Virus record (IMG/VR): IMGVR_UViG_2654587685_000022
Length of the DNA: 12,723 nucleotides
Source: a virus
Lineage: Duplodnaviria; Heunggongvirae; Uroviricota; Caudoviricetes
Strand: one strand, 5' to 3'
The notes beneath the pieces were generated by a model. That model was given only the letters and a program-made list of their open reading frames with translations, was not told where the DNA came from and ran no database searches. The position numbers and the translations under genes were made by a program. Shown here in pieces: positions 1 to 3,542 of this stretch; the stretch's first letter is position 1, and each line of letters opens with the position of its first letter.

Positions 1-20
1 CACTGTTTATCTATACAGTT
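1..20 (+). promoter_or_regulatory. Candidate LexA (SOS) box, distal copy
   Basis: caCTGTttatctatACAGtt has the CTGT-N8-ACAG dyad with an AT-rich spacer, matching the E. coli LexA-box pattern TACTGT(AT)4ACAGTA. It lies about 45 bp upstream of the dinI-like start codon and is truncated by the window edge, so flanking context is unknown. Confidence 0.55.
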
Positions 21-28
21 AAAAATAA

Positions 29-48
29 TACTGTATACAAACACAGTA
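29..48 (+). promoter_or_regulatory. LexA (SOS) box, proximal copy
   Basis: taCTGTatacaaacACAGta is a near-consensus 20-bp LexA operator (CTGT-N8-ACAG with flanking TA..TA). It ends 14 bp before the ATG at 62 and a GAGGG Shine-Dalgarno at 51-55. Confidence 0.75.
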
Positions 49-61
49 TAGAGGGACTTTT

Positions 62-310
62 ATGCGTATTGAAATCTGCATAGCCAAAGAAAAAATGACT
101 AAAATGCCAACCGGTGCTGTGGATGCGTTAAAGGAAGAATTAACCCGACGCATCAGTAAACGTTATGACGATGTAGAGGTGATCGTAAAAGCCACCAGCA
201 ACGATGGCCTTTCTGTTACACGCACCGCAGATAAGGATTCTGCAAAAACTTTTGTTCAGGAGACTCTGAAAGATACCTGGGAATCTGCTGACGAGTGGTT
301 TGTTCACTAA
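62..310 (+). CDS. dinI: DinI-like DNA damage-inducible protein (prophage-borne homolog)
   Basis: 82-aa [12 protein letters not shown]...[11 protein letters not shown]. Length, N-terminal MRIE motif and C-terminal ETWESADxWFV motif match my recollection of E. coli DinI (about 81 aa). SD GAGGG sits 6 nt upstream and two LexA boxes lie directly upstream. It is on the opposite strand to the tail module. Confidence 0.85.
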
Positions 311-544
311 TTAACACGTAAAATCGGTAACGGCTGGAAATCATTCAATACTCGCACTATCGAAAGTTCGCCAGCCAGCCGTGGCACGTTCTTGCATACG
401 ACGTGCTACGGTTTCATTTATCTCCCGAAACTCCATTTGGATTTATCCGGTGCGCCGTAAAACCCCGTCCTTCAGGGCGTGGAGGATGTCAACTGGACGC
501 ACTGGAGCTGGTCGATACTTCCGGTGCGCCAGATATTGAATGGC

Positions 545-1150
545 CTACGCCTCCGGCAGTTCAGGCCAGATGACATCCGGCGCGGTGCTGGTATCTGTTG
601 CCTGCACCGCCTTAATGTAGCCAATCCAGGCAATCAGGCTGGCTTTGTCATCGCCACTGATAATGCCTAACTGCAGTTCCGTTTGCCACAGGCTGATTTT
701 TGAATTTGCGGCGTTCAGAAGATTTGTTTTCTGTTGCTCGGCTTCGGCCACGTTCGCCGAGTGCTGTTTATCGCTATCTGTAGCCCATTTCTCACCATCC
801 CATTTGTCATATGGCGTAGATGGTGCTGTGGTGGTGGTGCCTTCCGGGTATTCTCCCAACCGTGAAACTGTCACATGCTTTCCAGTTTCCGTGCTGTAAA
901 CGGTTTCGCCGCGATGGTCTGCAACGTATTCCCAACCGGTCAAATCAGCCGTCCGGCAAACAGCAAAGCCGTCCTTTTTGCTGATTGGCGCATCCACGCA
1001 CGAATTGCCTGGAACACCAACGCCAACGGGAAGATATTCAACAGCTAAACCGATATATTCACGCGTCACGCCATCATAATTATAAACGGTGATATATCCG
1101 TCTTCCGTGACGAAACCGTTTTCATCTAATGAAATTTCTTTTGCGGTCAT
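545..1150 (-). CDS. Tail fiber assembly protein (Tfa chaperone family)
   Basis: 201-aa ORF immediately downstream of the tail fiber gene with a 1-nt TAATG stop/start overlap. This position and size are typical of Tfa/gpU-like chaperones. Family assignment is by position and general composition, not by search. Confidence 0.7.
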   Translation of the reverse strand: MTAKEISLDENGFVTEDGYITVYNYDGVTREYIGLAVEYLPVGVGVPGNSCVDAPISKKDGFAVCRTADLTGWEYVADHRGETVYSTETGKHVTVSRLGEYPEGTTTTAPSTPYDKWDGEKWATDSDKQHSANVAEAEQQKTNLLNAANSKISLWQTELQLGIISGDDKASLIAWIGYIKAVQATDTSTAPDVIWPELPEA

Positions 1151-1905
1151 TATACTGCCCTTACAATGTAGTTGAATGCGAGGTTGCGCGGGCGAGTTTC
1201 AGCACCTGTTGAACCATTCGCCTTTACGTAAACCCAACCAGAGCCATTAAAAGTGGTTGCATTAATCATATATTTAATCGGAATCATGTCAGAGTCAGGG
1301 GTATCGCCCAGCCTGTCCCTGTAAGCGGTCTCTGAACTGTATGCCATCGCTAGATCATGAGTATGCTGCTGTACTGATTGGCTCTGACCAGTTAAAACAA
1401 CGCGCCCACTATCAACCCCGCGCCCATCATCCCAGCCACGGATAAATTCACCGCGCAAATCAGGCAATTTTAACGCTGGATAAACTTTTGCCAGCTCCGG
1501 GTATTCTTCAGCAGAAAAAGGCGCACCGTTGCATTTAATCCAGCCTGTTGGCGGTGTGGCTGAAGGCCACGGAACAGGTACACCAACGGGTAACGCTGAG
1601 CCTTCTCCCAAACCAAGGTTTTCGAGAGCCGTTTTCACCGTGCCATCCGATTTGATATCACCAAACGGATTCTTGCGGCTTAACAGCAGCGCACGAAGCG
1701 CGGTAAGCAGCTGGTCGTGCCGCCCCTTCTCCAGGCTGGCACCGGATGCCTCCACAACGCTGCAAAGCTCCTCCTGCAACATGTCAAAGTAGTCATCATC
1801 CAGATCGGTGGCAGGTGTGCCGGTCTGGGGGTTACCACGGGTAAAACCGTTCTTACCCGCGCCGAACTTATCCTTCTGCGCGGTTTTCGTGTCTATACGA
1901 TGCAT
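1150..1905 (-). CDS. Short tail fiber protein (constant N-terminal part plus tail-collar-like C-terminal domain)
   Basis: 251-aa ORF with GGAG SD 7 nt upstream of the ATG. The C-terminal half (PVGVPVPWP...[23 protein letters not shown]...[17 protein letters not shown]) resembles the phage tail collar domain found in e14 StfP-type short fibers. The N-terminal roughly 97 aa end exactly at an internal hix-like site. Confidence 0.7.
1603..1628. other. Candidate Hin/Gin/Cin/Pin-family DNA invertase crossover site inside the tail fiber gene
   Basis: TTCTCCCAAACC-AA-GGTTTTCGAGAG is a 26-bp imperfect palindrome about an AA core. Each half matches 9/12 to hixL (TTCTTGAAAACC AA GGTTTTTGATAA) as I recall it. 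It encodes [10 protein letters not shown] at residues about 92-101 of the fiber, which is where Sc/Sv junction sites sit in Mu and e14 fibers. Confidence 0.5.
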
Positions 1906-1908
1906 GGA

Positions 1909-2493
1909 TTACTCCGGATATTTAAAAATTACGTAGGTATGCGAAGGGCAGAGTTTGTTAAGCACGCACTCGACAACGGTGTCGCCCCAGATACGCAGTG
2001 CGGAATCACAGGGATCGCCACATGTCATCCAGGTGGTGTTGGTGGCGGCTGGCATGTTGACCTGCCAGTAATACCGCCATTCCGGCGCATTCACTGCGTC
2101 AGTACAGGCCGATGAGCAGGTGAACGTGCTTTTATCGTATCGCGTGATAGTGGCGTCTGGTCTGCCCAGGGCAGCAAGCTGTGCAAGATAAAAATCCTCA
2201 TTGATGCCGCCCGCCAGATTAACCTTCGCATCCAGCCGTTGCTGACGCTGGCGAAGGGTCTGTGTCCCTGCGGGAATACATTCATCCGGCAGACCGCACA
2301 GACGCTCCCAGCGGTTTATCAGTTCAGTGGTGGTGCGCGGATCCAGCTCCCGCATCAGGGCATCCGCACGCTGATGAACGCGGGTTAATGACGGTGCCGC
2401 ACCGGCAATCGCCGGATCGCTGACTGACCACGCCGGACCGGGCGGCAACAGTGCCGACAACAGACGGATATAATCATCGTTTGTCACGTCCAT
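1909..2493 (-). CDS. Baseplate wedge/tail protein, Mu gp48-like (YmfQ-like, 194 aa)
   Basis: 194-aa ORF between the baseplate J-like gene and the tail fiber, overlapping the J-like gene by 10 nt. Position and size correspond to Mu gp48 and e14 YmfQ. Confidence 0.6.
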
Positions 2494-3542
2494 GAAATCG
2501 TCCCCAGAACCGCCAGCTCATTTTTTGCAATGGAGATATTGTCCGCCGGGGCAAGCAACTGATGGCTGTATTCCCCGTTCGCACCGGAAATCGCTTCACT
2601 GATACGTGACACCTTCAGTTCTCCCTGCGGATAACCATCACGCAGCAGGAACGAACGCAACTCGGCGGTGATGGCAGCCCGTATTTCCGGTGTGTCCGGC
2701 GTCACGCGGATATGAAAATCCACTTTATGCGCCACCGGCCTGAATACATACAAATCAGAGCCTGCCACCGGGGCCAGTGGCTCGATATGTTGTCTTGCCG
2801 CCGTTTCCGTTGACTCTTCCGGAATGGGATTAATCAGGTCACTGCTGGCAATCATCACACCGACAGTCCCCGTTCCCATCCAGTGTCGGTATGTCCATGC
2901 GCGGGTAATGCCGGGCACTTCTTTAGCCCAGACGACATAGTCCCCGTCAGCCCCGCCCTGAGGCGTCCAGTAATACCGCTCAATGACGCGGGCGCGCCAC
3001 GTTTCCAGCTCTTCAGTATCAAATCCGCCTGTCAGGGTGTCAGCCACACCGGAAGACGGCAGACCATTCACCGGCGTGACCAGGATTAATGCCGTACCGT
3101 CGTCAGCGTTACCGACCGCGCCTGTAGTTGAGCAAGTGATCGGCACACGCAGGACACCACCAGTGCTGATTGCATCGGCAGTTGCCGTGTACTGAACCAG
3201 GTCATCGCGCTGAATAACACTCCCGGCGGTCACCTTCAGGCCATCGCTGACACCTTCCCAGCGCATATACCCGCTGGCAGCCGTGGCCCCCTTGCGCGGA
3301 CACCGTTTCATCGCAGCATGTCGCGCCAGCCAGGACTCATCGCACAGATCAGGCAGCATGTTCATTGCCAGATAATCGATGTAACCGTAAACCGTATGCA
3401 GCGCCGCCGCATACACCTTTGCCCGCACGTCTTCATCCATGCGCCGGAGCGTGTCGCTGACGTCCAGCCTGGCGAATAAATCGTTACGGAGCATACTGAT
3501 ATTTTCTGCCAGCGTCGGGCGCTGAAATTCACTGTCCGCCAT
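2484..3542 (-). CDS. Baseplate J-like protein (Mu gp47 / P2 gpJ family)
   Basis: 352-aa ORF in the conserved position between the gp46-like and gp48-like genes with overlapping start/stop. Size and position are as expected for baseplate J. Confidence 0.7.

Follow-up and report, generated by a model that had tools for sequence, protein, structure and literature searches.

DinI of Escherichia coli K-12 is encoded by a chromosomal gene (b1061) whose LexA-repressed promoter lies near the start codon, and is an alpha/beta protein of about 81 amino acids (aa). It stabilizes RecA filaments when present at stoichiometric levels, and at high levels inhibits UmuD cleavage and recombination (review PMC6590174). 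Relatives of this gene are also carried by prophages. The homologues of Salmonella Gifsy-1, -2 and -3 (STM2621 and relatives) have a LexA box beside the promoter; all are damage-induced, 14-23-fold by nalidixic acid, and the Gifsy-2 protein accumulates after mitomycin C (PMC3121763, PMC8072944). A DinI-like domain under LexA control is likewise found in Tum of phage 186 and in the split tum/dinI genes of PSP3 and Fels-2 (PMC3121763), while the LexA-controlled dinI mRNA of Klebsiella pneumoniae ends in a terminator hairpin and gives rise, from its 3' end, to the small RNA (sRNA) DinR that regulates ftsZ (PMC10907235). Promoters with more than one LexA box are known from the SOS genes lexA, which has two, and recN, which has three (Table 1, PMC8072944). 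Here we describe a dinI homologue at one end of a 12,723-base stretch of tailed-phage DNA (IMG/VR record IMGVR_UViG_2654587685_000022; the whole stretch is hereafter called the window), which is preceded by two putative LexA operators and followed by a terminator-like hairpin, and we compare this cassette with the systems above.

Two exact CTGT-N8-ACAG motifs are found at positions 3-18 (CTGTTTATCTATACAG) and 31-46 (CTGTATACAAACACAG), as had been noted in the first-pass annotation of this DNA. They are the only matches in the window on either strand and both fall inside 46 nucleotides (nt), while dinucleotide-preserving shuffles gave an expectation of 0.14 per window and reached two or more matches in only one of 200 shuffles. 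Scoring of the two 20-mers against a LexA matrix, which that annotation had proposed as a check, was carried out by means of a heterology-index matrix, for which 18 E. coli LexA boxes from the literature were used (Table 4, PMC3009722) and which was applied to every 20-mer of the window. Box 1 (1-20) has an index of 5.0 and box 2 (29-48) an index of 2.8, the latter being the top site of the window; both are within the range of the validated training sites, which is 0.3-9.3 and becomes 0.6-12.8 upon leave-one-out scoring (n = 18). The third-best 20-mer has an index of 12.1 and the window mean is 36. On the same matrix, the single box of K-12 chromosomal dinI (ACCTGTATAAATAACCAGTA) has an index of 3.7. 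The 61-nt leader that contains the boxes is AT-rich, with a guanine-plus-cytosine (GC) content of 28%, and reads CACTGTTTATCTATACAGTT-AAAAATAA-TACTGTATACAAACACAGTA-TAGAGGGACTTTT followed by ATG.

The operator cores are also conserved among relatives. In 20 distinct promoter variants that could be aligned without gaps, none of the 16 CTGT/ACAG core positions is variable, compared with 23 of the 49 other positions (Fisher p 2.6e-4, a value that is indicative only, as the promoter variants are related sequences). Two boxes at the same positions are found upstream of the 82-aa homologues of 1720a-02 (80% protein identity), PhiR12_2 (71%), P-EibC (63%) and BP-4795 (60%), and both are retained in two diverged promoter alleles. 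A single box is found in the Klebsiella members of the 82-aa clade (68-70%), in the 77-aa Gifsy-type clade (Gifsy-1, mEp237, SEN34, SPN3UB-like, Klebsiella and Aeromonas phages) and in K-12 chromosomal dinI. Judged from these sequences, the two-operator design is a conserved trait of the Escherichia/Shigella cassette down to about 60% protein identity. The promoters of the 82-aa clade occur as two alleles, of which one has strong boxes (indices 5-6 and 2.8-4.5) and the other weak boxes (7-9.6 and 8.5-9; for instance, ACTGGTTATCCATACAGAT ... ACCTGTACATAACTACAGTT) and is carried by BP-4795-type promoters. These alleles have recombined independently of the protein allele (L101, L104, L105, L115-L120, L091), and such shuffling may give different induction thresholds in different phages.

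The two boxes of lexA are 21 bp apart and those of colicin genes overlap. The present cassette resembles lexA and recN in having several LexA boxes over one core promoter, but the start-to-start spacing differs from that of lexA and colicin genes, being 28 bp in the window and 27 or 29 bp in natural variants. Because 28 bp is not an integral number of helical turns and the spacing is variable, helical-phase-dependent cooperativity is not indicated, and the earlier suggestion that the pair might bind LexA cooperatively gains no support from the arrangement.

The boxes overlie a predicted promoter whose upstream part lies outside the window and was read from close relatives, namely IMG/VR locus L036, which is 98.3% identical to window 1-3322, and phage SKA5, which is also close. 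Both read ...cTTGACActgttt... here, the coding sequence of the integrase ends one base before window position 1, and its TGA stop codon lies inside a perfect TTGACA. In L036, a consensus scan identifies TTGACA-18-AAAAAT, which agrees with the consensus at 10 of 12 positions, and the GenBank record of mEp460 annotates a promoter here as TTGACA-17-TAAAAA. The AAAAAT hexamer is invariant in the 20 promoter variants and is also present in weak-box alleles such as those of P-EibC and BP-4795. Promoter and terminator scans of the window itself found nothing relevant, the former because the -35 hexamer is cut by the window edge and the latter because the loop of the hairpin is 9 nt long. Box 1 occupies the spacer and the predicted transcription start falls within box 2, which is the layout of a typical SOS promoter. 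Sequence, score, promoter position and evolutionary conservation together support, in silico, that both sites are real LexA operators. No LexA-box feature is present in the feature tables of the mEp460 and SKA5 records.

The identity of the gene product, which the first-pass annotation had called DinI-like, is well supported. The protein matches the Pfam DinI family (PF06183) over profile positions 1-63 of 63, with 70.9 bits against a cut-off of 24.2 and an E-value of 1.1e-19, and phmmer aligns its residues 1-81 end-to-end with Protein Data Bank (PDB) entries 1GHH/7YWA (E 3.7e-13). It is 46% identical to K-12 DinI and has the same C-terminal TWESAD(D/E)WF helix. An AlphaFold2 model from the single sequence, with a mean predicted local distance difference test score of 77 (moderate confidence), shows the beta-alpha-beta-beta-alpha layout, its elements being strands at 2-8, 39-45 and 50-53 and helices at 9-14, 17-34, 58-72 and 74-80. 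Foldseek of this model at E <= 0.001 returned only 1GHH (E 1e-5) and 7YWA (E 1.5e-5), with a template modelling score of about 0.65. In the cryogenic electron microscopy structure of RecA-DinI, the contacts are made by a hydrophobic pocket of L13, L21, W71, W77 and F78 and by an acidic patch of E24, E69 and D76 (PMC9926225). All eight contact residues are kept in the window protein, five as identities (L21=L23, W71=W73, W77=W79, F78=F80 and E24=E26) and three as conservative replacements (L13->M15, E69->D71 and D76->E78). A comparison of 29 distinct copies gives a nucleotide diversity of 0.005 at codon position 1, 0.0016 at position 2 and 0.072 at position 3, and the low values at positions 1 and 2 indicate strong purifying selection on the protein. 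Domain, fold and RecA-contact residues thus support in silico that the gene encodes a DinI homologue. The features of the cassette are collected in Table 1.

Table 1. Features of the dinI cassette at the left end of the window
Feature	Position	Strand	Remarks
-35 hexamer TTGACA, last two bases CA	1..2	+	first four bases outside the window, inferred from relatives
LexA box 1, CACTGTTTATCTATACAGTT	1..20	+	fills the -35/-10 spacer; exact core; index 5.0
Predicted -10 hexamer AAAAAT, 18-bp spacer	21..26	+	alternative TAAAAA at 20-25 with 17-bp spacer (mEp460)
LexA box 2, TACTGTATACAAACACAGTA	29..48	+	over the predicted transcription start at about 32-34; exact core; index 2.8
Shine-Dalgarno sequence GAGGGA, 5 nt ahead of ATG	51..56	+	read from the sequence
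dinI homologue, 82 aa, ATG start, TAA stop	62..310	+	Pfam DinI, PDB and fold matches
3' untranslated region, 67 nt	311..377	+	common to most cassette copies
Intrinsic-terminator-like hairpin (378-412) and T-rich tail TTCATTTATCTC (413-424)	378..424	+	right end of the cassette

On its right, the cassette ends in a hairpin with a 13-bp stem, a 9-nt loop and a predicted free energy of -21 kcal/mol; the folding z-score for 308-430 is -4.1. The hairpin folds in all 15 variants (-12.6 to -23 kcal/mol) when each sequence is folded separately, a procedure used in place of RNAalifold, which on a MAFFT alignment recovers 4 inner pairs only, with indels misaligning the 3' arm. The stem has undergone compensatory changes (CGTGG/CTACG, CGCAG/CTGCG, CGCGG/CCGCG and GTA/TAC), in one lineage the inner stem and loop are wholly different, and TTTTT runs follow the hairpin in many variants. 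Homology between phages stops at about 415. In relatives, the hairpin sits just beyond the stop codon of pinE, and it may also mark the 3' end of leftward transcripts. On the minus strand, 380-443 weakly matches the Rfam model of CssrB, a chromosomal sRNA of Shigella (32 bits, where the threshold is 76 bits; E 7e-5); the 3' end of the CssrB model corresponds to the opposite strand of the dinI terminator hairpin.

Several features show in silico that window 1-424 is a self-contained, horizontally mobile moron that comprises promoter, two operators, dinI and terminator. It has its own predicted promoter and its own covarying terminator hairpin and is oriented opposite to the tail genes, its genomic contexts vary, and its base composition is deviant, with 42% GC compared with 54% in the tail genes. 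The DNA upstream of TTGACA and that downstream of the hairpin (about 415) differ among phages. A promoter before dinI, a terminator after it and the end of homology at about 415 together indicate a monocistronic unit. Two statements of the first-pass annotation need to be revised in this light. The gene had been described as divergent to the late tail operon, but dinI is on the plus strand and the tail genes are on the minus strand (12711 down to 545), so that the arrangement is convergent and the 3' ends face each other across the hairpin; and it had been assigned to the tail end of the module, whereas it forms an insert of its own, low in GC and immediately downstream of the integrase of the prophage.

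The cassette is widespread. Of 5426 complete E. coli genomes, 1408 contain it at a coverage of 80% or more, often as multiple copies. Among phage records, 251 match window 1-415, with identities of 80-99%. Carriers include mEp460, SKA5, the cdtI phage, CP-1639 and many Shiga toxin (Stx) phages of the Stx1- and Stx2-converting types, which are 91-98% identical to the window at the nucleotide level over 1-415 and in which the product is annotated as DinI-like, as DNA-damage-inducible protein or as RecA filament binding protein. Within the cassette, these annotated phages differ from the window in essentially nothing, but the neighbouring pin invertase is deleted in the window. Two IMG/VR loci, L036 and L018, are 98% identical, and a scan of genome contigs found four loci, all in E. 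coli or Shigella. In E. coli CX04, a separate record of 37,667 bp (NZ_CP081716.1) carries the cassette at 99.3% identity and the chromosome has a copy too; the size of this record matches that of phage SKA5 (37,572 bp). It is probably an excised circular phage genome that was captured in the assembly, which suggests that the prophage is active.

Based on these observations, we consider it likely that the cassette is a moron whose DinI-like protein is made, under the control of two LexA operators, only during the SOS response; from the operators and their placement, SOS-inducible expression of the gene is very likely. In the following scheme, we infer that LexA binds, when induction takes place, that the protein binds RecA, and whatever effects there may be on prophage induction or mutagenesis. 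In an uninduced cell, dimers of host LexA would occupy both operators and the promoter would be shut. Upon DNA damage, RecA filaments would form, LexA would cleave itself and both operators would clear, probably relatively late or only upon heavy damage, because box 2 is a strong site. A monocistronic mRNA of about 380-390 nt would then be made, ending at the hairpin at 378-412, and its 82-aa product would most likely bind RecA filaments and add to the host DinI pool. The phage DinI would stabilize the filaments and compete with the slowly cleaved substrates of the filament groove, UmuD and CI-type repressors. The elements of the RecA filament groove to which DinI binds are also those bound by lambda CI (PMC9926225). 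The CI protein of SKA5, the closest annotated phage, contains a helix-turn-helix and a peptidase-S24 domain. Given the shared groove elements and the S24-type CI, competition between phage DinI and CI is mechanistically possible, and an effect of phage DinI on repressor cleavage or prophage induction is plausible. A further step, which we regard as rather unlikely, would give the cassette the role of a late-SOS timer. As expression requires that both operators be cleared, and as box 2 is strong, DinI would appear only after deep or prolonged damage and, by competing with S24-type CI and UmuD for the groove, would determine how much damage is needed for induction, or how heterogeneous induction is, in its own prophage and, in trans, in co-resident lambdoid prophages such as Stx phages, many of which have this cassette with a strong-box or a weak-box promoter.

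Some points weigh against the reading of the cassette as an SOS-controlled moron. The window starts within the promoter, with only the last two bases of the -35 hexamer inside it, and the predicted -10 hexamer is weak and no more than a match to the consensus (four of six positions). In the relatives, the integrase is directly upstream with no terminator between it and dinI, and read-through from the integrase could give some LexA-independent dinI transcription. At the other end, the tail after the hairpin is only moderately T-rich in the window variant (TTCATTTAT), which makes the efficiency of termination uncertain. Non-polar deletions of the Gifsy dinI homologues caused no measurable change in induction (PMC3121763), and the phenotype of a phage dinI may be subtle or absent. 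Because the Gifsy repressors are not RecA-cleaved, the deletions speak neither for nor against an effect where CI-type phages are concerned. Finally, a search of the literature found no paper on this cassette, on its operator pair or on experiments with its clade.

Other explanations for the same DNA were weighed against SOS-controlled production of DinI. To chance palindromes without a regulatory role we give virtually no credence: AT-rich DNA such as the 28%-GC leader yields TA-rich palindromes more easily, but 0.14 motifs are expected per window and two occur within 46 nt, the full 20-mers score like validated operators, the cores are invariant while their flanks vary, both boxes are kept to about 60% protein identity, and they lie over the core promoter as is typical of SOS genes. 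It is improbable, too, that the operators mainly serve a user other than LexA, or act as a roadblock to, or in 3'-end control of, the integrase. SKA5 encodes, outside the window (L100 8484-8810, minus strand), a 107-aa protein that has the LexA DNA-binding domain only (PF01726, E 1.7e-18); the S24 cleavage domain is absent, and the protein would therefore resemble LexA without being cleavable and could in principle bind the same SOS boxes, among them the two before dinI. The overlap of the integrase stop codon with the -35 hexamer and the missing terminator before dinI could be taken to point to the integrase. However, the boxes move with dinI and not with the integrase, as both boxes are retained in PhiR12_2, P-EibC and BP-4795, where the DNA upstream of TTGACA is unrelated, so control of the integrase by the boxes is unlikely; and the sites fit the host LexA consensus as well as those of chromosomal SOS genes, which means that host LexA should bind them regardless and that a phage LexA-like protein would add to LexA control, not replace it.

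Two further alternatives concern what lies downstream of dinI. In the Gifsy prophages, dinI is first in a LexA-controlled operon, followed by the GUG-initiated antirepressor gene gfoA/gftA, whose small product inactivates the prophage repressor, and by irsA (PMC3121763). An induction module of this kind, for which the window offers two GTG-initiated open reading frames (ORFs) on the plus strand (381-539 and 403-573), is very improbable here. The terminator hairpin stands about 70 nt after the dinI stop codon and inter-phage homology ends at about 415, while the GTG-initiated ORFs begin in the hairpin and extend into DNA that varies from cassette to cassette. The second of these ORFs is the C-terminal remnant of a tail fibre assembly (tfa) gene. 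A tblastn search with five proteins at the antirepressor position in Gifsy-1, mEp237, SEN34, Klebsiella and Aeromonas phages found nothing at 300-600. The Gifsy genes also belong to the other DinI clade, with 77-aa products, about 42% identity and a single box that overlaps the -10 hexamer, and sit in the nin region, with replication genes on one side and Q on the other, whereas the window gene encodes 82 aa, is monocistronic, has two boxes and lies at the integrase end of the prophage; and SKA5, with its self-cleaving S24-type CI, needs no antirepressor. A Gifsy-like antirepressor operon was accordingly rejected, given the terminator after dinI, the lack of a conserved ORF and the negative tblastn search. 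The antirepressors of 186, PSP3 and Fels-2, which drive induction and to which the DinI-like part is fused or adjacent, likewise have no counterpart beside the window dinI. That the main output is RNA, a stable sRNA from the dinI 3' untranslated region (UTR) and hairpin that regulates host genes in the SOS response, is quite improbable, and a DinR-like small RNA from the shared 3' UTR is a secondary, weakly supported possibility. In its favour, Klebsiella DinR arises in this way (PMC10907235), the 67-nt UTR is present in most copies and has few variable sites in its first 50 nt, its diversity (0.047) is somewhat lower than that of third codon positions (0.072), and a terminal hairpin with a U-rich tail is the usual Hfq-binding module. 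The constraint is modest, however, and explicable by recent common ancestry, the divergent clade members (1720a-02, PhiR12_2, P-EibC and BP-4795) have unrelated downstream sequences, and variant L025 lacks the first 45 nt or so of the UTR. The ftsZ-pairing stretch of DinR belongs to a Klebsiella-specific 3' UTR to which that of the window is unrelated. A search of 250-700 against Rfam found no family on the plus strand of this region, a match to HgcC at E 0.88 being noise, and for sRNA-17 of an mEp460-like prophage no link to the dinI locus was established. No credible ORF was found in 311-377; in strain D53-1, RefSeq places an incomplete, frameshifted 'capsid protein' pseudogene opposite the dinI 3' UTR (window 307-394, minus strand; L181 2402-2489), and the shared UTR may be a relic of another gene instead of a functional RNA element. 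The dinI coding sequence, in turn, is under strong protein-level selection.

The prophage itself is, like phage SKA5, a temperate myovirus that integrates at dusA and combines a Mu-like tail with a control region of the lambda type. Complete genomes have, in this order, leftward dusA, rightward integrase and dinI and then, all of them leftward, pinE, the genes for tail fibre assembly and for the tail fibre, YmfQ and the baseplate genes. In L036 and SKA5, the upstream integrase is a 365-aa tyrosine integrase (Pfam Phage_integrase). The window lacks, at 416-573, the pin DNA invertase and alternate tail-fibre segment that SKA5 and CX21 have. What is left is the C-terminal part of a second tfa gene (493-573, plus strand, ending ...DTSGAPDIEWPTPP...), for which the annotation of strain D53-1 gives an incomplete pseudogene. 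The sequence TCCGGTGCGCC occurs twice, at 446-456 and at 520-530. The pin-less junction is common to seven of the 5426 complete E. coli genomes, among which no contiguous match to window 1-2500 was found because the tail-fibre region is variable. Several IMG/VR prophage contigs (L009, L016, L047, L052 and L064) begin exactly at the first base of the window. The shared start indicates that the window edge is probably a prophage-boundary call that excludes the integrase; this call also leaves out the true attL, which adjoins dusA, and severs the dinI promoter midway through the -35 hexamer.

LexA-controlled prophage dinI genes have already been published for the Salmonella Gifsy prophages, and the cassette is already present in hundreds of annotated records. 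It differs from K-12 dinI, which lies between bssS and pyrC and has unrelated promoter and 3' UTR sequences, in its place on a prophage next to the integrase and in its second LexA box. The operator pair of the 82-aa clade is a detail of a known kind and not a new kind. The cassette is real, well formed and ordinary, a textbook SOS-regulated moron. Its remaining interest is the possible physiological role of a very widespread extra DinI under tight double LexA control, as roughly one in four complete E. coli genomes has the cassette and so do many Shiga-toxin phages. Should this additional DinI alter the processing of CI or UmuD by RecA filaments, Stx-phage induction, toxin release and SOS mutagenesis would be affected under quinolones and other antibiotics of that sort.

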